21,813 bases of DNA from a virus (IMGVR_UViG_2563366926_000003); one strand, 5' to 3'; shown: positions 1-21,813, numbered from the stretch's first letter. Numbers and translations: made by a program. Notes: generated by a model from the letters alone, not told the origin.

Positions 1-1284
1 TTACTTCTTCGCCTCTGCAACCACTTTGCTACCCACGCCGCGGTTATTGTATTCCCACATGCGGTTGTAGTTAGTGTCATTCAGATTGCGCTGTACTTCG
101 TCGTTATCATCAACGTTGCCAGTATTACCCGCAAACGGACGATTGGAAATCACCGCATCGGCCCACGGTTTCGCCGTGTTAAAACCTTCGTTGATGGCGC
201 TATCACGGATCACTACCTGACCGTTGGTATTGGCATCAACATCCAGCGAGCGGCCCAGTTGCGCCACGCCATCCCCGGAAGCATTGAAACGGCTGTTTAC
301 GGCGAGGAAACCGTAGTAAATGTTGGACAGCGTAGCCGGTGCAAACACATACGCTTCTTGCTGGGTACGGGAGTTCACCACGCGGAATTCGGTGTTATCG
401 AACACCACTGCGCCGCGACCAGAAACGATATCCACATCCCCTTCAATGTAGCTGTTAGTCACCAGGGTACGCGGCTGACGGTTGCTTTCCAGACGGTTTT
501 GCACACCGCTGTTGGTGACAAAGAAGGTATTCTGGCGACCGAGAATATTGACGTTATTGATCTGCACTTTGTCGCCATCAGTACGCAGTGCCACCGCCGG
601 ATGGTTACCCGCATCTACGCTATCGCCCAGTGTGTTTTCGATGGTCAGGTTTTGCAGTTGCAGGCCATTGTTTTGTGACCAGAAGACCGCAGAACAGAGC
701 ACGCCAATGCTGTCGCTGCGTTTGCTCTGGCAGCTATCGTACATATACCACGCTGGTTTACCCGGCATATATTTGCCGCGTGGGTTGACGTCGTGACGCC
801 AGTCGGCTGGGCTCATGCCCCCATCAAGGGAAAGCCCAATTTTCACATCAATCGGTTTTTCACCTGTACCGTACAGAGTAATTCCACCCGGAGCGGCAGG
901 GACATACACCGTTCCCTGATACTCACCAGGCATCACGGCAATATACTGGCGCTTGTTGGTACGCTTGATAATTGCCGCATCTACCGCCGCCTGAATCGTG
1001 GTATGCGTTACACCTTGAGTACCCGCCGGGCCGACAACAAAGTCAGGTTGTGCAGGCAGGGTAATCGGGGAAGGATTCCACGCTGCAGCACCTGGTGTCA
1101 GGGATGCAAAATAGTGTTGAGCATCGAAATTCTGCGCTTCTTTTGCCGACAGAATCGGGCGAGAAGAGGTACCAGGCGCGGTTTGATCAGAAGGACGTTG
1201 ATCGGGCGGTGTTGAGCTACAGGCGGTCAGCGTCACGCCAAAAGCCAATGCCAGCGCCAGACGGGAAACTGAAAATGTGTTCAC
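1..1284 (-). CDS. ybhC: Host lipoprotein YbhC (pectinesterase-like / acyl-CoA thioesterase family), flanking lambda attB
   Basis: Full 427-aa ORF with a lipoprotein signal peptide (lipobox LTAC); recognised as E. coli YbhC, the gene next to the lambda attachment site. Stop codon at window position 1-3. Confidence 0.85.
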   Translation of the reverse strand: MNTFSVSRLALALAFGVTLTACSSTPPDQRPSDQTAPGTSSRPILSAKEAQNFDAQHYFASLTPGAAAWNPSPITLPAQPDFVVGPAGTQGVTHTTIQAAVDAAIIKRTNKRQYIAVMPGEYQGTVYVPAAPGGITLYGTGEKPIDVKIGLSLDGGMSPADWRHDVNPRGKYMPGKPAWYMYDSCQSKRSDSIGVLCSAVFWSQNNGLQLQNLTIENTLGDSVDAGNHPAVALRTDGDKVQINNVNILGRQNTFFVTNSGVQNRLESNRQPRTLVTNSYIEGDVDIVSGRGAVVFDNTEFRVVNSRTQQEAYVFAPATLSNIYYGFLAVNSRFNASGDGVAQLGRSLDVDANTNGQVVIRDSAINEGFNTAKPWADAVISNRPFAGNTGNVDDNDEVQRNLNDTNYNRMWEYNNRGVGSKVVAEAKK

Positions 1285-1418: not shown

Positions 1419-2489
1419 TTATTTGATTTCAATTTTGTCCCACTCCCTGCCTCTGTCATCACGATACTGTGATGCCATGGTGTCCGACTTATGCCCGAGA
1501 AGATGTTGAGCAAACTTATCGCTTATCTGCTTCTCATAGAGTCTTGCAGACAAACTGCGCAACTCGTGAAAGGTAGGCGGATCCCCTTCGAAGGAAAGAC
1601 CTGATGCTTTTCGTGCGCGCATAAAATACCTTGATACTGTGCCGGATGAAAGCGGTTCACGACGAGTAGATGCAATTATGGTTTCTCCGTCAAGAATCTC
1701 TTTGCATTTATCAAGTGTTTCCTTCATTGATATTCCGAGAGCATCAACATGCAATGCTGTTGGGATGGCAATTTTTACGCCTGTTTTGCTTTGCTCGACA
1801 TAAAGATATCCATCTACGATATCAGACCACTTCATTTCGCATAAATCACCAACTCGTTGCCCGGTAACAACAGCCAGTTCCATTGCAAGTCTGAGCCAAC
1901 ATGGTGATGATTCTGCTGCTTGATAAATTTTCAGGTATTCGTCAGCCGTAAGTCTTGATCTCCTTACCTCTGATTTTGCTGCGCGAGTGGCAGCGACAGG
2001 GTTTGTTGTTATATGGCCTTCAGCTATTGCCTCTCGGAATGCATCGCTCAGTGTTGATCTGATTAACTTGGCTGACGCCGCCTTGCCCTCGTCTATGTAT
2101 CCATTGAGCATTGCCGCAATTTCTTTTGTGGTGATGTCTTCAAGTGGAGCATCAGGCAGCCCCCTCCTTATTGCTTTAATTTTGCTCATGTAATTTATGA
2201 GTGTCTTCTGCTTGATTCCTCTGCTGGCCAGGATTTTTTCGTAGCGATCAAGCCATGAATGTAACGTAACGGAATTATCACTGTTGATTCTCGCTGTCAG
2301 AGGCTTGTGTTTGTGTCCTGAAAATAACTCAATGTTGGCCTGTATGGCTTCAGTGATTGCGATTCGCCTGTCTCTGCCTAATCCAAACTCTTTACCCGTC
2401 CTTGGGTCCCTGTAGCAGTAATATCCATTGTTTCTTATATAAAGGTTAGGGGGTAAATCCCGGCGCTCATGACTTCGCCTTCTTCCCAT
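1419..2489 (-). CDS. int: Lambda integrase (tyrosine recombinase)
   Basis: 356-aa ORF (MGRRRSHERRDLPPNLYIRNNGYYCYRDPRTGKEFGLGRDRR...); full length and sequence recognised as lambda Int; adjacent to attL and overlapping xis. Confidence 0.97.
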   Translation of the reverse strand: MGRRRSHERRDLPPNLYIRNNGYYCYRDPRTGKEFGLGRDRRIAITEAIQANIELFSGHKHKPLTARINSDNSVTLHSWLDRYEKILASRGIKQKTLINYMSKIKAIRRGLPDAPLEDITTKEIAAMLNGYIDEGKAASAKLIRSTLSDAFREAIAEGHITTNPVAATRAAKSEVRRSRLTADEYLKIYQAAESSPCWLRLAMELAVVTGQRVGDLCEMKWSDIVDGYLYVEQSKTGVKIAIPTALHVDALGISMKETLDKCKEILDGETIIASTRREPLSSGTVSRYFMRARKASGLSFEGDPPTFHELRSLSARLYEKQISDKFAQHLLGHKSDTMASQYRDDRGREWDKIEIK

Positions 2490-8653: not shown

Positions 8654-8962
8654 TCATCTCGCCGTCAGTTGTTTTGATTTCCGGTAGCCTGCCGCGTAAA
8701 TAGCTACGTTTGGCAGGCAAACACTTCCACTGCATTCATCTACTTTCTTGCAGCGAAGGCTTCCGAGTGATATTGCTTTTTCAGAAAGGCTTAACCGCTT
8801 TCTCGGGTCTTCCTGAACAGGTTCCTCACTGTCTGTGCCGAAGATCGAATCGATGATGTTGCAGATGGAATCACGCTCGATGGCCAGCTTTCTGCGCCGC
8901 TCATGACGGCGAGTTTTGGCATTTCCTGCAAATGTTGATTTTCCGTACACGATTACCGTCAT
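8654..8962 (-). CDS. N-type transcription antiterminator, P22 gene 24-like (not lambda N)
   Basis: Internal start MTVIVYGKSTFAGNAKTRRHERRRKLAIERD... (102 aa) inside the 130-aa track ORF; arginine-rich N-terminal motif; recalled as similar to P22 gp24; lies downstream of a P22-type nutL. Confidence 0.8.
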   Translation of the reverse strand: MTVIVYGKSTFAGNAKTRRHERRRKLAIERDSICNIIDSIFGTDSEEPVQEDPRKRLSLSEKAISLGSLRCKKVDECSGSVCLPNVAIYAAGYRKSKQLTAR

Positions 8963-9080
8963 GATGTTTTCCTCATGTGAAATGGCTTTGGTGGTGATGC
9001 GCCAGATGCTGATCTTCTGGTTGCTGTCGTTACTGCTGCAATTCACATCACCCCAAACCCATCTCGTTTGGTATCTGTTC

Positions 9081-9114: not shown

Positions 9115-9371
9115 CTGCCAATCTGTTCCGTTTGGCTGCCAGCGTCCTGCTGATGGCGATGATAATGAACCAATAGTTCGATATTATCAAGAACTATAAG
9201 TACGAATTGTTTGTGGCTCATTAACTTAATGAGATATGTTTTTGATATGTAAAGGAATTTATTTTTGTAAAGATTGAAGATTGGTCAGTAGGAGAGAAAG
9301 AATTGTTTGCTGGCGTGTTAGTTCGTGGGTTAGCACATGTGCGGATGTTAAATAAGGTAGACGATCGTGAG

Positions 9372-9398
9372 GAAAAGAAAAACCGGCGCTGAGGCCGG
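9372..9398 (-). terminator. Terminator ending the leftward cI-ORF299 transcript
   Basis: GC hairpin ccggc-gctgag-gccgg (9383-9398) followed on the minus strand by a T-run (plus-strand gaaaagaaaaa); sits just after the ORF299 stop. Confidence 0.5.
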
Positions 9399-9404
9399 GT
9401 ATAA

Positions 9405-10304
9405 TTATTTGATTATTTCTTTTATAAAGACTTCTTTCGGTTGGTATTTTTTATCTGATGATTTGAGCTGGTACGTTATTGTTATATCAGCACGTACAGC
9501 AAATTTACCTGCAAAATCTGATGGGTTTACGTTGGGGCCAAGAACCATATTTACTCTTCGATCTATTAATCCAGGGATAACAGCAGCCCAACCTTTCTCT
9601 GGATTGTCGAGGTCTAATGCACGGATTTCAACATCAACATCAAAATGATCCTGAGTATATGACTCTGGTGTGAAGACAACTTCAGTTGGGGCTTTTTTAA
9701 TGGTTTCAGCGGGAATGGTCACTGTACCACCCCCTGTACCTATGACCATCGTAGATCCTTCGTCTGCCCTAGCTGGGGCAAGCGTCTTAATGGAACTTTT
9801 GGCAAGAGTCTTCTTATTGGTTACCGTGCTTTCTATGATTGCTTGAAGACGGTCAGGTGAAATATTAGCCTCACCGGCACCAATATTGATGATTGTATTG
9901 TTATTTGCTTCAAAGTGGGAGGTGTTGCTTGGAGCCATAGCCTTAGTTGCTAGAACTAAGCCATATCCAACCAGACCAATAACAACAGCACCAACGAGAG
10001 CGTTTCTCATTTTCCCATTTCCGATCTTTGCATGAGCGCCAGCAAGAAACTTGTCCATTTCTTCTTGGCTACCAAAGAGGAGTTTAATAACAATATCTTC
10101 ATAAAGGCTTCCTGCTTCTAATCGCGCAACATGCACCGATATATCAAGGATATTAGCCCCTGTCAGTTCCTGCAAAACACCTTCTGATTGTTTTGCGATG
10201 GCCTCCCACCCTTGAAGGGAGGTAATCACATCTTTGATGCTTACAGGTTCTTTAGTTGAATAATATATGTTTTCGGTAAAGGTTAAAGATAATTCTTGGG
10301 ACAT
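9405..10304 (-). CDS. Hypothetical membrane-anchored protein (one central TM helix) in the rexAB position of the immunity region; candidate superinfection-exclusion / abortive-infection gene
   Basis: 299-aa ORF with a good RBS (gaggg, 6 nt upstream of the ATG), co-oriented with and 130 bp downstream of cI; central hydrophobic helix ALVGAVVIGLVGYGLVLATKAMA; visibly more AT-rich than the lambda backbone; no family recognised. Confidence 0.7.
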   Translation of the reverse strand: MSQELSLTFTENIYYSTKEPVSIKDVITSLQGWEAIAKQSEGVLQELTGANILDISVHVARLEAGSLYEDIVIKLLFGSQEEMDKFLAGAHAKIGNGKMRNALVGAVVIGLVGYGLVLATKAMAPSNTSHFEANNNTIINIGAGEANISPDRLQAIIESTVTNKKTLAKSSIKTLAPARADEGSTMVIGTGGGTVTIPAETIKKAPTEVVFTPESYTQDHFDVDVEIRALDLDNPEKGWAAVIPGLIDRRVNMVLGPNVNPSDFAGKFAVRADITITYQLKSSDKKYQPKEVFIKEIIK

Positions 10305-10433
10305 CCGAGCCCTCGCTGTTTCTTTCGATTTGCTGTGTTAAGCTAATATTTTAATATCCATGTTTCTGTTTGCTTGCAGTGTGTTTCTCACCACCATCCA
10401 AACGTACTGGTTACTAGCTATGTGATGATGAAG

Positions 10434-11141
10434 TCATGAACTTTTCAGCCATTCCCTGGCCTCGATGTCATCTAGGTGGCGAGATTGCTTCAGAATACCA
10501 GCTACATACTCCACCTTTGCTACTTGATGATAAGGCAACGTTATTGGCCTGTGGTCTTGGTTGATGCTTGTAAATTGGTATTCTCCGTCTCTGTCATAGC
10601 CAAGAACCTTGATCATGTTGTGCCCTTCAATGGTTCTGACAAACACCTCATCACCTGGGAATACTTTGGTGTTAGGCTCAATGAGTACATATTCTCCTGA
10701 TTTTATTCTGGGCCACATGCTGTCTCCTTTTACACGAAGACCAAAGGCATCTGGATCATCGCTATAAATCTTGAGCCACCCATCGCGCTCTTCGGTCATC
10801 TCGATGGCACCATCAACACCAAGAATTGCCTCACCAACCACGCGCACTAACCCTTTTTTTAATTTGCCAACAATTGAAAAAGTATCTTCATCATTCGCTC
10901 CATTTAACGAAGTGCCGTGCTGAAGCCAAACAACATCAACGTTTAGAAATTTCGCAAGCGCATTCATTTTTTCCTGGCGTGGTAAAGACTCAGCATTAAA
11001 CCATTTGCTAACGCCTTTGGACGAAAGAGAAAGGGCACGGGCTATGGCCATTCCCCTACCATGTTCATCAAGACCAGCTTCTTTACAGGCTTGCGCTAGC
11101 CGCTGGGCGAATTCTTTGCGCACTTTTTCATTCTGAACCAT
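10434..11141 (-). CDS. cI: CI-type prophage repressor (N-terminal HTH, C-terminal S24 LexA-like autopeptidase); non-lambda immunity
   Basis: 235-aa ORF; C-terminal domain carries the S24 catalytic motif (GDSMWPRI ... MIKVL) for RecA-stimulated autocleavage; divergent from cro across an operator region; no SD upstream, so possibly leaderless like lambda cI from pRM. Confidence 0.88.
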   Translation of the reverse strand: MVQNEKVRKEFAQRLAQACKEAGLDEHGRGMAIARALSLSSKGVSKWFNAESLPRQEKMNALAKFLNVDVVWLQHGTSLNGANDEDTFSIVGKLKKGLVRVVGEAILGVDGAIEMTEERDGWLKIYSDDPDAFGLRVKGDSMWPRIKSGEYVLIEPNTKVFPGDEVFVRTIEGHNMIKVLGYDRDGEYQFTSINQDHRPITLPYHQVAKVEYVAGILKQSRHLDDIEAREWLKSS

Positions 11142-13722: not shown

Positions 13723-16700
13723 ATGACCACTGTGAATAAAAAGTTAAAAAAAACTGCATCTGGCGCGATTACATGGTCAGTAATTGTTACCCAGATATTA
13801 TCTCCAGTTTCTCTTTCTTTGATTCCGGCAAACAGTTTTGCATCGTCTGATAATAAAGATGTTACGCAAATTTATGCTAGCGATGAGCGTGCAAATAAAG
13901 TGGCCTCATTTGCAGTAAGTGCAGGTCAGAGTCTGGCGAATAATAATGCAAGTAGTTTTGCTGTAAATACTTTATCAACTCAGGCGACAAAAGAGGTCGT
14001 CGATTGGTTGCAACAATATGGCAATGCGCGCATCAAGCTTAATGTCGATAATTCTTTTTCCTTGAAGGATTCATCATTCGACTTTTTATATCCATGGCTG
14101 GATACTCAGGATTATGTGCTATTCAGTCAAACATCACTACATCGTACTGATGACCGTAATCAGACCAATATTGGTTTGGGGATTCGTCATTTCACTCCTG
14201 ATAATGCAATGTTGGGTGCGAATGTTTTCTACGATTATGATTTAAGTCGCAGCCACTCTCGCGCAGGTTTTGGGGTTGAGTACTGGAGAGATTATTTCAG
14301 GCTTGGTGTAAATACCTATTTTGGTTTATCTGACTGGAAGGACAGTCGGGATATTGATGATTATCTGGAAAGACCCGCAAATGGCTGGGATTTTTCTGCT
14401 GAAGGATGGCTACCTGCTTATCCGCAATTAGGGGCATCTATTCAGTTTGAAAAATATTATGGTAAAAATGTCGGATTATTTGGAAGCGATAATCTGCAGG
14501 AAAACCCTTACGCAGTTACTGGGGGAATTTCTTATACACCAGTTCCTCTGATTAAGTTTTCTGCACAGCATAAGCAAGGACAGAGCAACGTTCACGATAC
14601 AACCTTTGGTGTTGAGTTTAATTACCGCCCAGGCGTTTCCCTTGCTGAACAGCTTAGCAGTGACAATGTTGCAGTTATGCGAGAAGTCCAGAACCGGCGT
14701 TATGATTTTGTTGAACGAAATAACAACATTGTTCTGGAGTACAAGAAGAAGCATGCACTGAAAATCAGCTTACCAGAGTCTGTTCAGGGGGATGGCGAAT
14801 CAATCATCCCTGTAACACTGACAATCAACAATGCCAGTGGTGGTATCAAGTCTGTACAGTGGAATGATAGTGTATTCACTGCGGCTGGCGGTAAGATCAG
14901 TGGAAATGGCACATCATGGCAGGTCACTTTACCGGCTTATAAAAGCGAAGGTGTAAATTCGTGGAATGTTGGAGCCACGGTCCAGGATAATAGAGGCAAC
15001 GTTTCCAACTATGCGGTGATGAATATTAGCGTTATCAATAGTGGTGTCTCGACAGCGGATTCTTCTTTTATGTTGGATGGAGATTCATCTCCGACGATCT
15101 CTGCTGATGGTCAATCCACTCATCCAATAGTATTAAGCCTGAAAGACAGTAACGGTAAGGCATTAACCGGACTGGCTGATGACATTGAAATGTCAGTGGA
15201 ATTTACTGCGGATAGCAATAGTGCTCGACAGCGTGAAACGGTAACTGCCCCGTCATTAGGCGCGGTAGAGGAAATCTCTGCTGGTGTATATCGCTCTGTT
15301 CTGACTGCTGGTTCGCAGGCTGGCACAGTACGTGTAACAGCAAAAGTTCAGGGAAAAACCTTTACTTTGAATATTAAGCAGGCAGCCGTTATTGATAGTG
15401 ATGTCTCGACAGCGGATTCTTCTTTTACGTTGGATGGTGATTCGTCTCCGACGATCTCTGCTGATGGTCAATCCACTCATCCAATAGTATTAAGCCTGAA
15501 AGACAGTAACGGTAAGGCATTAACCGGACTGGCTGATGACATTGAAATGTCAGTGGAATTTACTGCGGATAGCAATAGTGCTCGACAGCGTGAAACGGTA
15601 ACTGCCCCGTCATTAGGCGCGGTAGAGGAAATCTCTGCTGGTGTATATCGCTCTGTTCTGACTGCTGGTTCGCAGGCTGGTACGGTACGTGTAACTGCAA
15701 AAGTAATGGATAAAACATTTACTCTCAGTATTAAGCAAACAGCAGCAACAGAACCTGATTCTGAGGTCAGTGCTGTTTTAACCGCTGCACCAGCAGAACA
15801 GGTAGTTGGTTACAATATCAATCTACAACTGGCAGTGAAGGATTCACAAGGAAATGCAATCACTGGTGATAACACTCTGAGCTTTTATGCTCTTAACCAG
15901 GCAGAAGGAGTCGAGTTTGGGGCTGTAACGGAAAAAGACGGTGTCTATAGCGCGACAGTAACTTCAAAACGAGCTGGTAAGATTCGGATCGGTGTTAAAT
16001 CGGGTAGTCACAATTTCTCAGGTATTGAGAAAGAAATCTCCTTTATTGAAGATCGAACACAGTTCGCATTCTCTCGTATTGAAGCCAGTAAAAATAATGC
16101 ATTGGCTGACGGCAAACAACAGAATACGGTGACTTTAAGCCTTGCAGATCGTTTCGGCAATGTTGTGCCCGGTTATGCTGTTACGCTGTCCTTACCTGCG
16201 GGGGTAACTCAAGTTGGTGGTGAACATGCTGTGTCAACTGACGAAAACGGTAATGCTGTTTTTGCGTTAATAAGCTCCACTCCGGGTTCTTACGTGATTA
16301 AAGCTCATGCTGGTTCTCAGATGTCTACTGAGTTAACAGTAACCTTTGCATCAAATATGATCGGAGCTTCACTGTCACTGACGCCTGGAAACAGTAGCTT
16401 AATTTCCAATATTCCTGCTAATGGTAAGGATGCTGCGGTATTGAATGTGCAACTGACAAATACGAATGCGTCGGTCAATGGACAGAAGATTCAGCTCATC
16501 ACCTCATCTGAAAGATTGTCTGTACCGACAAATATCGTGACTGATTCAACAGGGCATGTTTCCGTACCACTTACAACGGTGAGAGCTGGTGAGTATACGG
16601 TGGCTGCACGAGTGACTGACGGTTCCCATAGTGTGGAGTCTGGCAGCGTTAAGTTAACTTTTGTACCAGATGCTGCTTCCGCAGAACTTACTATGAGTAC

Positions 16701-17631
16701 ATCAAAACAGCAGATTGTGGCCGATGGTAGTGAAAGTGCAACAGTGGACATTCAGTTGGTTGATGCCAATAACAATGCGTTTACAGGCGATGTGGATTTA
16801 ACGGTTACACCATCGACGGGAGCATCATTGACCAGTAGTAAACTGCAGTTGGATGCTCATGGACAGGCAACAACGCAGTTCACAGCATCGAAATCAGGCC
16901 AGTACACAATTCAGGCTGAGTATGTTCTAGATGGGAAACGTATAACCGCAAGCAAAAATATTGATGCCGTGACGGATGTGAAGGAGGCTGTGTTGGAGAT
17001 CACATCATCTGCATCTTCGGCTGTAGTGAGCGATACCAACAATCTGATATTTACGTTACTGTTGAAAAGTACGTCAGGCGAAGTATTAAGTGGTCGAGTA
17101 TTGAATATCAAGGCATCTGGGCCGTCCAAATATGGTGCGTTGGTGGTTGATAAAACCACTGTAACGACTGATGAGTATGGTCTGGCTACGGTAAGCGTAC
17201 ATGGTCGAACGGCTGGTTCGTATAAATTAACGGCGACCTTAGATGAACTTGGCAGTGATGTTAGTGAGGTGAAGTCATTCTCTCTGTATGCTGATGAGGC
17301 AAATGGAGTATTGACACTGCATAAAGATGGAGGCTATGACACAGATGATGGTACTCCAGTGGGGGTTTATGCCCGATTTGTTGACCATTTCGGCAATCCG
17401 TTATCTGGTACGGTTGAGTTTTCTGCTGGTAGTGAAGATAGTCCAAACTCTCAACGGGTTAAAATGGAGCCTGCTACAGTAACGTTACACTGGACAGGTA
17501 ATGCAGCCTCGGAGTTCAGCACCTATGAAAGCGGTTATCACTGGATTAAGGCCAAAATAACGAACAGCAAAAATACATATGAGAAAACAATAAGGACTTA
17601 TGTTGTAAAGCTCCCTGAAAAGGATAGTTAA
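13723..17631 (+). CDS. Inverse autotransporter adhesin of the intimin/invasin family (signal peptide, outer-membrane beta-barrel, tandem bacterial Ig-like domains)
   Basis: 1302-aa ORF; N-terminal signal-like segment; residues ~100-340 resemble the intimin/invasin beta-barrel translocator (GIRHFTPDN...GFGVEYWRDYFRLGVNTYFG...FGVEFNYRPGV); the C-terminal ~950 aa is a series of repeated ~100-120-aa Ig-like modules including two near-identical copies; preceded by ~240 bp of very AT-rich DNA and followed by a strong terminator. Confidence 0.85.
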   Translation: MTTVNKKLKKTASGAITWSVIVTQILSPVSLSLIPANSFASSDNKDVTQIYASDERANKVASFAVSAGQSLANNNASSFAVNTLSTQATKEVVDWLQQYGNARIKLNVDNSFSLKDSSFDFLYPWLDTQDYVLFSQTSLHRTDDRNQTNIGLGIRHFTPDNAMLGANVFYDYDLSRSHSRAGFGVEYWRDYFRLGVNTYFGLSDWKDSRDIDDYLERPANGWDFSAEGWLPAYPQLGASIQFEKYYGKNVGLFGSDNLQENPYAVTGGISYTPVPLIKFSAQHKQGQSNVHDTTFGVEFNYRPGVSLAEQLSSDNVAVMREVQNRRYDFVERNNNIVLEYKKKHALKISLPESVQGDGESIIPVTLTINNASGGIKSVQWNDSVFTAAGGKISGNGTSWQVTLPAYKSEGVNSWNVGATVQDNRGNVSNYAVMNISVINSGVSTADSSFMLDGDSSPTISADGQSTHPIVLSLKDSNGKALTGLADDIEMSVEFTADSNSARQRETVTAPSLGAVEEISAGVYRSVLTAGSQAGTVRVTAKVQGKTFTLNIKQAAVIDSDVSTADSSFTLDGDSSPTISADGQSTHPIVLSLKDSNGKALTGLADDIEMSVEFTADSNSARQRETVTAPSLGAVEEISAGVYRSVLTAGSQAGTVRVTAKVMDKTFTLSIKQTAATEPDSEVSAVLTAAPAEQVVGYNINLQLAVKDSQGNAITGDNTLSFYALNQAEGVEFGAVTEKDGVYSATVTSKRAGKIRIGVKSGSHNFSGIEKEISFIEDRTQFAFSRIEASKNNALADGKQQNTVTLSLADRFGNVVPGYAVTLSLPAGVTQVGGEHAVSTDENGNAVFALISSTPGSYVIKAHAGSQMSTELTVTFASNMIGASLSLTPGNSSLISNIPANGKDAAVLNVQLTNTNASVNGQKIQLITSSERLSVPTNIVTDSTGHVSVPLTTVRAGEYTVAARVTDGSHSVESGSVKLTFVPDAASAELTMSTSKQQIVADGSESATVDIQLVDANNNAFTGDVDLTVTPSTGASLTSSKLQLDAHGQATTQFTASKSGQYTIQAEYVLDGKRITASKNIDAVTDVKEAVLEITSSASSAVVSDTNNLIFTLLLKSTSGEVLSGRVLNIKASGPSKYGALVVDKTTVTTDEYGLATVSVHGRTAGSYKLTATLDELGSDVSEVKSFSLYADEANGVLTLHKDGGYDTDDGTPVGVYARFVDHFGNPLSGTVEFSAGSEDSPNSQRVKMEPATVTLHWTGNAASEFSTYESGYHWIKAKITNSKNTYEKTIRTYVVKLPEKDS
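15030..15743 (+). repeat. Near-identical 357-bp (119-codon) in-frame tandem duplication inside the adhesin gene
   Basis: The unit starting gtctcgacagcggattcttctttt occurs at 15046 and again at 15403 (period 357 bp); the central ~280 bp differ at only a handful of positions; encodes VSTADSSF.LDGDSSPTISADGQSTHPIVLSLKDSNGKALTGLADDIEMSVEFTADSNSARQRETVTAPSLGAVEEISAGVYRSVLTAGSQAGTVRVTAKV twice. Confidence 0.92.
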
Positions 17632-17643
17632 CAAAACAGAATA

Positions 17644-17670
17644 GGGAGGGCTAAGCCCTCCCACTTTTTA
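17644..17670 (+). terminator. Rho-independent terminator of the adhesin gene
   Basis: Perfect 8-bp GC-rich stem gggagggc / gccctccc with loop taa, followed by acttttta. Confidence 0.8.
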
Positions 17671-18153
17671 ATTGAGACGGACTGTTTCTTAAATTCACTT
17701 ACGTTAGATATGAACTGGTTATTTTTTATAACAATAAAAGACTTTTGATTTTTGAATATCAGTAAGTAATAATGATTTACGTCGACAGACTGAACATCTG
17801 TTGGTGACTTCTGCGCTAAACGGGGACGTTTATGCGCACATACAATCTAAACTCTCTTCTCTCTTCACAGATGCAGAAATGCACCTGCGATTCTTTGCAT
17901 CCAACGTTTGACCTCTGCGGAGGTGAAGCGTGAACCTCCCACAAGATGGCATCAAATTACATCGCGGTAACTTCACCGCTATCGGTCGGCAGATCCAGCC
18001 TTATCTGGAGGACGGCAAATGCTTTCGCATGGTGCTTAAACCGTGGCGCGAGAGACGCAGTCTAGACTGGCCCCCTGAATCTCCAGACAACCAGTATCAC
18101 TTAAATAAGTGATAGTCTTAATACTAGTTTTTAGACTAGTCATTGGAGAACAG

Positions 18154-18519
18154 ATGATTGATGTCTTAGGGCCGGAGAAACGCAGACGGCGTACCACACA
18201 GGAAAAGATCGCAATTGTTCAGCAGAGCTTTGAACCGGGGATGACGGTCTCCCTCGTTGCCCGGCAACATGGTGTAGCAGCCAGCCAGTTATTTCTCTGG
18301 CGTAAGCAATACCAGGAAGGAAGTCTTACTGCTGTCGCCGCCGGAGAACAGGTTGTTCCTGCCTCTGAACTTGCTGCCGCCATGAAGCAGATTAAAGAAC
18401 TCCAGCGCCTGCTCGGCAAGAAAACGATGGAAAATGAACTCCTCAAAGAAGCCGTTGAATATGGACGGGCAAAAAAGTGGATAGCGCACGCGCCCTTATT
18501 GCCCGGGGATGGGGAGTAA
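18154..18519 (+). CDS. insC: IS2 OrfA (InsC) transposase regulatory/DNA-binding subunit
   Basis: 121-aa frame [56 protein letters not shown]... with RBS ggagaa; recognised as IS2 InsC. Confidence 0.93.
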
Positions 18520-19382
18520 GCTTAGTCAGCCGTTGTCTCCGGGTGTCGCGTGCGCAGTTGCACGTCATTCTCAGACGAACCGATGACTGGATGGATGGCC
18601 GCCGCAGTCGTCACACTGATGATACGGATGTGCTTCTCCGTATACACCATGTTATCGGAGAGCTGCCCACGTATGGTTATCGTCGGGTATGGGCGCTGCT
18701 TCGCAGACAGGCAGAACTTGATGGTATGCCTGCGATCAATGCCAAACGTGTTTACCGGATCATGCGCCAGAATGCGCTGTTGCTTGAGCGAAAACCTGCT
18801 GTACCGCCATCGAAACGGGCACATACAGGCAGAGTGGCCGTGAAAGAAAGCAATCAGCGATGGTGCTCTGACGGGTTCGAGTTCTGCTGTGATAACGGAG
18901 AGAGACTGCGTGTCACGTTCGCGCTGGACTGCTGTGATCGTGAGGCACTGCACTGGGCGGTCACTACCGGCGGCTTCAACAGTGAAACAGTACAGGACGT
19001 CATGCTGGGAGCGGTGGAACGCCGCTTCGGCAACGATCTTCCGTCGTCTCCACTGGAGTGGCTGACGGATAATGGTTCATGCTACCGGGCTAATGAAACA
19101 CGCCAGTTCGCCCGGATGTTGGGACTTGAACCGAAGAACACGGCGGTGCGGAGTCCGGAGAGTAACGGAATAGCAGAGAGCTTCGTGAAAACGATAAAGC
19201 GTGACTACATCAGTATCATGCCCAAACCAGACGGGTTAACGGCAGCAAAGAACCTTGCAGAGGCGTTCGAGCATTATAACGAATGGCATCCGCATAGTGC
19301 GCTGGGTTATCGCTCGCCACGGGAATATCTGCGGCAGCGGGCTTGTAATGGGTTAAGTGATAACAGATGTCTGGAAATATAG
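18477..19382 (+). CDS. insD: IS2 OrfB (InsD) transposase catalytic domain (DDE); expressed as an OrfAB fusion by -1 frameshifting
   Basis: 301-aa ORF recognised as IS2 InsD; slippery A6G motif (aaaaaag, 18470-18476) at the orfA/orfB overlap. Confidence 0.93.
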
Positions 19383-19720
19383 GGGCAAATCCACAGTCTT
19401 TCCCAGAATGCACTCAGCCACATGTGGTACAGCGAAATCAGTGAATACCTCATCAGCAGGGGTAAAACGTTCGCCACTCCAGCTTGGGTAAAAGATGCTC
19501 TCAAACACACATATCTCGGTTATGAAACCAAAGACCTGGTTGATGTCGTAACCGGTGATATCACCACTATCCAGTCGTTACGCCATACCTCCGACCTTGA
19601 TACCGGAGAGATGTATGTCTTCCTGTGTAAGGTTGAAGCCTGGGCGATGAATATTGGCTGCCACCTGACTATTCCGCAGAGCTGCGAGTTCCAGCTGCTG
19701 CGTGATAAGCAGGAGGCGTA

Positions 19721-19891
19721 ATGGCTACACCGCTTATTCGTGTCATGAACGGACACATCTACAAAGTACCAAATCGTCGTAAGCGTAGGCCTGAGCTGAA
19801 ACCATCCGAAATACCAACACTGCTCGGATATACCGCCAGCCTGGTTGATAAAAAATGGTTGCGACTGGCAGCAAGGAGGAATCATGGCTGA
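19721..19891 (+). CDS. ninE: NinE-family small protein
   Basis: 56-aa [59 protein letters not shown]; RBS aggagg; ATG overlaps the ninB stop (TAATG); basic NinE-like motif pattern; gene order as in DLP12 (ybcN-ninE-ybcO-rusA-ylcG-Q). Confidence 0.6.
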   Translation: MATPLIRVMNGHIYKVPNRRKRRPELKPSEIPTLLGYTASLVDKKWLRLAARRNHG

Positions 19892-20174
19892 TTTGAGAAA
19901 AGCAGCGCGTGGTCGGGAATGCCAGGTAAGAATCCCTGGCGTATGTAATGGCAATTCTGAAACGTCTGTACTGGCACATATCCGGCTGGCTGGATTGTGC
20001 GGTACCGGTATCAAACCGCCAGACCTGATTGCCACCATTGCATGTTCTGCCTGTCACGACGAGATCGACCGTCGCACGCATTTTGTTGACGCTGGATATG
20101 CAAAAGAATGCGCGCTGGAAGGTATGGCGAGAACGCAGGTTATCTGGCTGAAAGAGGGGGTAATTAAGGCGTGA
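19884..20174 (+). CDS. ybcO: YbcO-like (DUF1364) putative zinc-binding nuclease of the nin region
   Basis: 96-aa frame [64 protein letters not shown]... with a strong RBS (aaggagg); Cys/His-rich; recognised as the DLP12 YbcO family. Confidence 0.8.
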
Positions 20175-20533
20175 ATACCTACAATATCACATTACCCTGG
20201 CCGCCGAGCAATAATCGCTATTACCGCCATAATCGCGGGCGCACGCACATCAGCGCAGAGGGGCAGGCATACCGCGAAAACGTCGCCCGAATCATTAAAA
20301 ACGCAATGCTGGATATCGGCCTGGCTATGCCTGTGAAAATCCGCATTGAGTGTCACATGCCGGATCGCCGTCGCCGTGACCTGGATAATCTACAAAAGGC
20401 CGCTTTTGACGCACTCACCAAAGCAGGTTTCTGGTTGGATGATGCTCAGGTCGTTGATTACCGCGTTGTGAAGATGCCGGTTGTCAAAGGTGGAAAGCTG
20501 GAACTGACCATCACTGAACAGGGAGATGAATGA
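20171..20533 (+). CDS. rusA: RusA Holliday junction resolvase
   Basis: 120-aa ORF (GTG start overlapping the ybcO stop) [103 protein letters not shown]...; recognised as DLP12-type RusA. Confidence 0.92.
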
Positions 20534-20670
20534 TGTTTGAGTTTTATATGGCAGAACTTCTTCGCCACCGCTGGATGCGCCTGCGCTTATATCGTTTCCC
20601 TGGTTCTGTTTTGACCGATTACCGAATACTGAAGAATTACGCCAAAACCCTGACAGGAGCAGGAGTATGA
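20530..20670 (+). CDS. ylcG: YlcG-like small protein (46 aa)
   Basis: ATG overlapping the rusA stop (ATGA) encodes [46 protein letters not shown]; same position and size as DLP12 ylcG between rusA and Q; below the ORF-track cut-off. Confidence 0.55.
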
Positions 20671-20755: not shown

Positions 20756-21133
20756 ATGCGTGATATTCAGATGGTTCTTGAGCGTTGGGGAGCGTGGGCG
20801 GCTAATAATCATGAAGATGTGACCTGGTCGTCCATTGCCGCCGGTTTTAAGGGATTAATTCCTTCAAAAGTAAAATCTCGCCCGCAATGTTGTGACGATG
20901 ACGCGATGATCATTTGCGGGTGCATGGCCCGTCTGAAAAAGAACAACAGCGATTTGCATGATTTATTGGTGGACTATTATGTCGGCGGCATGACTTTTAT
21001 GGCGCTTGCACGTAAGCATGGGCGATCTGATTGTTGGGTTGGCAGGATGCTCCAGAAAGCTGAGGGCGTAGTGGAGGGTATGCTGATGGTGTTGGATCTC
21101 CGATTGGAGATGGATGCTGATTGTTCGAAATAA
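20756..21133 (+). CDS. quuD: Q late-gene antiterminator, phage 82 / DLP12 QuuD type
   Basis: 125-aa frame [81 protein letters not shown]... (ATG at 20756 with RBS ggag; the track ORF starts at an upstream TTG); recognised as the phage-82 Q family. Confidence 0.9.
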
Positions 21134-21288: not shown

Positions 21289-21813
21289 TTATTGTTTAAC
21301 CCATAATAATTCATTGACATTGAATCCCAACTTTTGAGCGGTTCGCACATAGTCTGCTTTTACTTTATCTGGAATAGTTGGGGTCCTTGCCAGAATCCAT
21401 AGGTATTCTCTGTTCGGACCACTGACAAGAGCATACTTATACTCATCATCCAGTTTGATTACATTATAGCCACCATAGAAGGGGCCAAAAAACGAAACCT
21501 TCAACGCTGCAGTTTTAGTATCTCCAGTAAAGTATGCTTTACCTTCGCTCTCGCTCCATTTATTTTTCGTTGGATCGTATCCACGGTTAAGTACACGAAT
21601 CCCTCCGTCGTTCCGTTTTCCATAAGTAGCGCTGACCTGTTCCAGACCACGTTCGAACCGGTTCTCGAGGCGAGCTATTTCATACCACTTTCCGAGGTAG
21701 CGGTTGGCGTCAAAATTTGTAATCGGCTGCACACCTTTAGGTGGTGTCGGGGCCTTACATGCTATAAGAGTGAAAGAGAGTGCAATGCCAGTCAACACAG
21801 GCCATAACTTCAT
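21289..21813 (-). CDS. Bacterial lipocalin (Blc-like) outer-membrane lipoprotein; cargo gene convergent with the late operon
   Basis: 174-aa ORF with lipoprotein signal peptide and lipobox (MKLWPVLTGIALSFTLIAC); lipocalin motifs (NFDANRYLGKWYEIARLENRFERG ... SFFGPFYGGYNVIKLDDEYKYALVSGPNREYLWILARTPT) recalled as matching E. coli Blc; start codon at the last base of the window. Confidence 0.85.
   Translation of the reverse strand: MKLWPVLTGIALSFTLIACKAPTPPKGVQPITNFDANRYLGKWYEIARLENRFERGLEQVSATYGKRNDGGIRVLNRGYDPTKNKWSESEGKAYFTGDTKTAALKVSFFGPFYGGYNVIKLDDEYKYALVSGPNREYLWILARTPTIPDKVKADYVRTAQKLGFNVNELLWVKQ

Follow-up and report, generated by a model that had tools for sequence, protein, structure and literature searches.

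Phage lambda can grow without Orf and the nin genes; its N-modified polymerase reads through the terminators of the nin region, and N suppresses IS polarity. YbcN, encoded by the Escherichia coli prophage DLP12, has been purified and behaves like lambda Orf (NinB): it prefers ssDNA and binds SSB (PMC4118853). Its sequence, a predicted architecture similar to that of Orf (RAGNYA fold) and its syntenic place ahead of rusA have led to the proposal that it is a distant member of the Orf family; the two proteins differ in that YbcN needs the C-terminal tail of SSB and Orf does not (PMC4118853). The conserved residues of the lambda Orf channel are R41, Q45, N46 and a W or H at position 50 (PMC4118853).

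The second described system concerns the gene block that follows ybcN. DLP12 rusA is normally silent, and upstream insertions of IS2 or IS10 switch it on, suppressing ruv mutations (PMC1636454, PMC2265524, PMC10956419). In these alleles, rus-1 (IS2) and rus-2 (IS10), the IS lies upstream of rusA in the lambdoid ybcN-ninE-ybcO-rusA block of E. coli K-12.

IS2 itself is well described. Its published ends are imperfect repeats, IRL of 42 bp and IRR of 41 bp; the two disagree at positions 2, 5 and 7, and IRL has one additional base, at position 9 (PMC3219604). A 5-bp target duplication is characteristic of the element (PMC4926192). In the minicircle the outward -35 in IRR is active only when a 17-bp spacer separates it from a -10 in IRL (PMC3219604). 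The last 150 bp of the right end show no detectable promoter activity (PMC12095673), and the promoter of the left end, PIRL, is weak and repressed by OrfA (PMC3299598). Fusion promoters of IS2, for instance at ampC, in which the right end directs an outward -35 at the downstream genes, need a correctly spaced -10 in the flank (Jaurin and Normark 1983, as cited in PMC9330008).

The stretch of DNA analysed here (the window, 21,813 nucleotides, IMGVR_UViG_2563366926_000003) carries an IS2 element within the ybcN gene of a lambda-like prophage. Very probably this is a single recent insertion that knocks out ybcN and has little effect on induction of the prophage. Profile matches give the order ybhC, integrase, exo, bet, gam, N-like gene, cI-type S24 repressor, cII, O and P, and the right part of the window continues from P through an adhesin moron, ylcH, ybcN::IS2, ninE, ybcO, rusA and ylcG to Q. 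The genes that frame the insertion are:

1-1284, minus strand: ybhC, at the start of the window; the integrase gene follows at once.
1419-2489, minus strand: prophage integrase gene, adjoining ybhC.
8654-9046, minus strand: gene for an N-like antiterminator (PHROG 271, E=3e-46).
13723-17631, plus strand: inverse-autotransporter adhesin gene (1302 aa).
17832-17933, plus strand: ylcH-like ORF of 33 aa, its stop overlapping the GTG start of ybcN; a hypothetical protein occupies the equivalent place in sister genomes.
19721-19891, plus strand: ninE, its start overlapping the stop of ybcN (NCBIfam NF007245, 138 bits).
19884-20174, plus strand: ybcO, a DUF1364 putative nuclease (Pfam PF07102, E=7e-41).
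20171-20533, plus strand: rusA, Holliday-junction resolvase (NCBIfam NF007305, 276 bits; Pfam RusA).
20530-20670, plus strand: ylcG (from the annotation of sister genomes; PHROG 2705).
20756-21133, plus strand: Q-family late antiterminator (Pfam Phage_antitermQ, E=2.5e-51; start coordinate taken from the sister-genome annotation).

E. coli S1-JOR-02-A (NZ_CP145634.1) carries a sister prophage whose flanks, compared with the window over about 11.7 kb, differ at 2 positions. There the lysis, terminase, head and lambda-type tail genes follow as far as ybhB-bioA, and with ybhC on the left and ybhB-bioA on the right the element therefore occupies the classical lambda attachment site. The host element of the insertion thus appears to be a full-length lambda-like prophage at att-lambda (ybhC side), unlike the remnant DLP12. 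Judged from the sister genome, since the window ends at 21813, the prophage looks structurally complete at about 50 kb.

Several features of the surrounding region may be recorded alongside. The adhesin gene contains a 357-bp tandem duplication (15030-15737; two copies, 95% identical) that encodes a repeated domain, and a strong terminator follows the gene at 17644-17662. Just downstream of Q, in the late-promoter region, lies a second moron, a gene for a Blc-like lipocalin (21289-21813, minus strand; Lipocalin_2, E=7e-44); in sister genomes the interval from it to the lysis cassette holds a gene of the YbgA family and an HTH gene with a frameshift. A promoter-like site, TTGATT-17-AATAAT, stands at 17745-17773 on the plus strand, after the terminator of the adhesin gene and before ylcH-ybcN, and matches at 9 of 12 positions; such sites are no more numerous in the region than in shuffled sequence. 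If the site were active, the nin operon would have a promoter independent of PR.

The insertion itself consists of the following parts:

17930-18062, plus strand: 5' fragment of ybcN, codons 1-44 plus 1 nt; it reads into IS2 to give a 60-aa product, and the same piece is a pseudogene fragment in the sister genome.
18058-18062, no strand: left CAGTC, 5-bp target-site duplication, read in the sequence.
18063-18104, plus strand: IRL, 42 bp, from alignment of the inverted repeats; the promoter region PIRL follows (PMC3219604, PMC3299598).
18154-18519, plus strand: IS2 orfA (insA), 121 aa, HTH_Tnp_1 (Pfam PF01527, E=1.8e-19).
18471-18477, plus strand: A6G slippery site (AAAAAAG), read in the sequence, for the -1 programmed frameshift that gives the OrfAB transposase.
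18477-19382, plus strand: IS2 orfB frame, rve/DDE integrase core (Pfam rve, E=9.9e-19; rve_3, E=1.7e-18).
19353-19393, plus strand: IRR, 41 bp, from alignment of the inverted repeats; its outward -35, TGGAAA at 19372-19377, forms Pjunc in the minicircle (PMC3219604).
19394-19398, no strand: right CAGTC, 5-bp target-site duplication, read in the sequence.
19399-19721, plus strand: 3' fragment of ybcN, codons 45-151 and stop; its first in-frame ATG, at 19422, opens a 99-aa remnant ORF.

The first-pass annotation described a full-length IS2 at these positions, and ends, length and identity all agree with that description. The element spans 18063-19393 on the plus strand, 1331 bp being the full length, with the transposase read in the same direction as ybcN and rusA. 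It begins with TAGACTGGCCCCC and ends with GGGGCAAATCCA; at the left junction GACGCAGTC meets TAGACTGG, and at the right junction AAATCCA meets CAGTCTTTCC. Aligned with each other, IRL and IRR mismatch at positions 2, 5 and 7, and IRL has an extra base at position 9, as in the published ends. Many E. coli genomes contain copies, labelled "IS3-like element IS2 family transposase", to which the element is 100% identical over all 1331 bp. In the window's copy orfA and orfB lie in the 0 and -1 frames, both intact, with an A6G frameshift window, and copies that are 99.8-99.9% identical to it carry a "programmed frameshift" annotation. Because orfA, the orfB frame and the A6G window are all present, the element looks fully functional.

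The same annotation had read an intact 5-bp duplication and two gene halves that rejoin in frame, and both readings hold. CAGTC stands on either side of the element, and once IS2 and one CAGTC copy are removed, 17930-18062 joined to 19399-19721 gives a 456-nt ORF of 151 aa. The 675-bp reconstruction of the empty site matches, at 100% and over its full length, at least 25 complete E. coli genomes; in the matching genomes RefSeq labels the uninterrupted gene "ybcN: DNA base-flipping protein YbcN". The accession of the intact protein is WP_001053029.1. On this sequence match, the exact restoration of a known ybcN allele cannot be a chance resemblance.

These junctions also bear on whether the insertion is an assembly artefact, that is, an IS2 misplaced by an assembler that collapses repeats. 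IS2 is a multicopy element (matches in 4,854 of 5,426 complete E. coli genomes, at a median of 4 places in each), and such repeats often cause misassembly. A misjoin, however, does not create precise junctions with a 5-bp duplication of the exact target, and eleven other loci share the clean architecture with different duplications. An artefact or a chance resemblance is accordingly scarcely credible, and the insertion is real, correctly read and ordinary: a recent IS2 event of known kind in a known gene.

The insertion had been described as simple and relatively recent, and the perfect duplication and the left arm of the prophage both bear this out. At least 10 complete genomes match the left 16,778 bp at 100.0%, and those of the listed examples that recur among the empty-site matches have intact ybcN. 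RIVM_C036569 exemplifies a type with intact ybcN and 100% identity over this left arm. At least 80% of the left arm is held by 42 genomes, and none of the 42 has the insertion of the window. The exact insertion is found in 0 of 5,426 complete RefSeq E. coli genomes, and the exact junction 30-mer has no match in the GTDB species-representative genomes. Since identical left arms occur with intact ybcN and no complete genome carries the insertion, it would therefore be very recent and confined to one strain or a narrow lineage.

The interrupted gene can be placed with some precision. It starts with GTG, and its reconstructed product is identical to YbcN of the K-12-lineage DLP12 at 148 of 151 positions (98%). 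In profile searches it matches PHROG 72, "NinB/Orf homologous recombination mediator", over its full length (E=3.8e-52), and NCBIfam PRK09741, the YbcN subfamily (278 bits). Its position in the nin region, between P and Q and upstream of the junction resolvase gene rusA, is also the one described for the Orf/NinB family, whose genes precede rap or rusA (PMC4118853). The ssDNA and SSB binding shared with lambda Orf is that of the DLP12 protein, and may be carried over to the reconstructed protein by analogy, across those 148 of 151 residues. The relationship to lambda Orf is distant in sequence: the Pfam NinB model scores 20.6 bits against a gathering cut-off of 23.8, a PDB sequence search finds no chain at E values up to 10, and the RefSeq name, "DNA base-flipping protein", differs from Orf/NinB. 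In the earlier label "NinB/YbcN-like", then, the NinB part calls for qualification: the Pfam score falls below the threshold, and it is PHROG 72, the DLP12 identity and the published biochemistry (PMC4118853) that speak for membership of the Orf/NinB family. Because of that score and the empty PDB search, "NinB-like" seems acceptable as a statement of family, not as one of close homology.

The site of insertion within the protein is consistent with inactivation. The spacing of R44, Q48, N49 and H53 in the reconstruction equals that of lambda Orf R41, Q45, N46 and W/H50, compared by eye and not by structural alignment. The insertion point, at about codon 45, falls between R44 and the Q48-N49...H53 motif, and by our own reading would cut YbcN at its most conserved segment, just before the Gln-Asn motif that lines the central channel of Orf. 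One IS2, moving by its usual copy-out/paste-in route, would have entered codon 45 and left a 5-bp target duplication, and would part the N-terminal 44 residues from the remainder of YbcN as a knock-out. Loss of YbcN function is inferred with high confidence. RefSeq already marks the sister allele of S1-JOR-02-A as a split pseudogene.

The effect on the genes downstream is a separate question. IRL lies upstream and IRR towards rusA, so that IS2 transcription and the outward -35 of IRR both point at ninE-ybcO-rusA-ylcG-Q; the element sits 778 bp upstream of the rusA start. The stop and start codons of the operon overlap at ybcN/ninE (19721), ninE/ybcO (19884-19891), ybcO/rusA (20171-20174) and rusA/ylcG (20530-20533). 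These overlaps, from ybcN to ylcG, suggest translational coupling along the operon, and lost ybcN translation might therefore lower ninE translation. The earlier proposal of a promoter or polar effect of IS2 on ninE-ybcO-rusA-Q is a reasonable one, with a direct precedent in the IS2 or IS10 insertions that activate rusA, and its two halves lead to two rival explanations.

The first rival explanation is activation in the manner of rus-1: read-through from PIRL, or a cryptic promoter at the right end, would transcribe ybcN'-ninE-ybcO-rusA, RusA would be made constitutively and the allele would be kept as useful. The resemblance is close. The element is the same and the proteins of the block are nearly identical (YbcN 98%); IS2 reads towards rusA in the window, and rus-1 is compared only by its description as lying upstream of rusA. 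Upstream IS2 or IS10 does switch on silent rusA in DLP12, and no intrinsic terminator is predicted on the plus strand from the IS2 insertion point (18063) to the end of Q (21133), so transcripts of this kind would meet none in that interval. There are also differences: rus-1 is a laboratory-selected ruv suppressor shown to activate rusA (PMC1636454, PMC2265524) and the insertion in the window is natural; DLP12 is defective, whereas the prophage of the window is apparently complete and repressor-controlled. The promoter evidence points away from activation. At 17 bp from the -35 TGGAAA of IRR stands AGTCTT, which matches a -10 at 2 of 6 positions, so that the correctly spaced -10 on which fusion promoters of the ampC type depend, according to the citing source, has no acceptable equivalent here. 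The scan that gives this 2-of-6 match recovers TGGAAA-17-TAGACT (Pjunc) at the IS2 minicircle junction as a positive control, and a separate consensus promoter scan of the junction between IS2 and its flank finds nothing. The published inactivity of the right end (PMC12095673) and the weakness and repression of PIRL (PMC3299598) point the same way, and strong read-through would not stop short of Q and the lysis genes, where it should do harm. At most, weak read-through from the repressed promoter of IS2 into ninE-ybcO-rusA might be expected. Activation of the rus-1 kind is on this evidence unlikely.

The second rival explanation is the opposite one, a polar insertion that domesticates the prophage: termination inside or downstream of IS2, combined with lost ybcN translation, would halt early rightward transcription before Q and lock the prophage in. 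IS2 insertions are classically polar, and PMC12095673 lists a paper on rho and the polarity of IS2 in gal. About 340 nt past the orfB stop (19382) run without an obvious translated frame, and the overlaps between the downstream genes suggest the coupling through which a loss of translation could spread. Against a block stands the N-like antiterminator that the prophage encodes itself, and in lambda N-modified polymerase passes the terminators of the nin region. The terminator prediction, too, gives no intrinsic terminator within IS2 on the plus strand. A literature search on IS2 orientation I or II versus polarity returned nothing usable, and one on N suppression of IS2 polarity in lambda found nothing except an unrelated case, P::IS2. 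A polar lock on Q is very unlikely, and less likely than activation. The suggestion that the insertion decides inducibility loses weight, since no fusion promoter is found and the prophage has an N-like antiterminator of its own.

Insertions of IS2 near ybcN in other genomes give a further line of comparison. S1-JOR-02-A carries IS2 in the same gene and in the same orientation, at 9310-10640, which is equivalent to 18069-19399 of the window; it lies 6 bp further downstream, its duplication is TTCCC and not CAGTC, and 3 nt differ within the element. Because site, duplication and IS2 copy all differ, the event in S1-JOR-02-A is, on the sequence, an independent one. For activation of the rus-1 kind, this second insertion of the same orientation 6 bp away is a point in favour. 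The wider survey is a point against. An initial query for IS2 near ybcN could only join hits of the same orientation, and the reversed element was queried as a control. IS2, or a 95-97% variant of it, lies within about 1.5 kb of ybcN in the orientation of the window in 22 genomes and in the opposite orientation in 12 (binomial p=0.12); counted as distinct events the figures are about 14 and 8 (p=0.29). An orientation bias that would indicate selection for rusA activation is significant by neither count.

At each of the 11 loci inspected the IS2 ends are perfect and a separate 5-bp duplication is present; the sites extend from the ninE/ybcO junction as far as 1.4 kb upstream of ybcN. At least 10 further distinct IS2 insertions occur within about 1.5 kb of ybcN in other E. 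coli, in the ybcL-ybcO interval of prophages of the DLP12 and lambda types and in both orientations; one of them is in ybcM, in the K-12/K1 hybrid EV36 laboratory lineage. About 34 genome occurrences of IS2 near ybcN are observed where about 11 would be expected from genome-wide density, a crude comparison that ignores shared ancestry; an enrichment of roughly three times is on this basis suggestive only. Target similarity to the IS2 ends was considered as a route of targeting and set aside: the best local match scores 12, a value reached in 1702 of 2000 shuffles.

The distance of 6 bp between the two sites hints at a local hot spot. One interpretation is that codons 44-47 of ybcN are a genuine hot spot of IS2, or a target of selection, and perhaps yield recurrent natural rus-1-like alleles rather than neutral decay; it draws on two independent insertions of the same orientation, 6 bp apart, in the same prophage of unrelated isolates, and on at least a dozen further IS2 insertions within about 1.5 kb in other E. 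coli. This interpretation is improbable. If it were true, rus-1-like alleles may switch on RusA or modulate Q in clinical strains. Recurrent independent IS2 insertions in a short interval, one of them 6 bp away, are the only aspect of the locus that is even mildly unusual.

Ranked by the evidence as a whole, a neutral or nearly neutral knock-out comes first, followed by weak activation of the rus-1 kind and then by the polar lock on Q. No observation speaks against the structural reading; the functional part is inference only. Under the preferred knock-out, the prophage would most likely lose one dispensable gene, its induction being little affected, because YbcN/Orf is accessory and the prophage has its own N-like antiterminator.

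The insertion is a natural counterpart of the classical rus-1 geometry, with IS2 upstream of rusA. If it raised expression of RusA or Q, DNA-repair capacity or prophage stability could be altered, and the sequence indicates no such rise. For the annotation of E. coli prophages, ybcN is to be recorded here as a pseudogene disrupted by IS2, within a lambda-like prophage that otherwise looks complete; the insertion has little significance beyond annotation. Since identical prophages without the insertion occur in many sequenced isolates, it can also serve as a useful, very recent strain marker.
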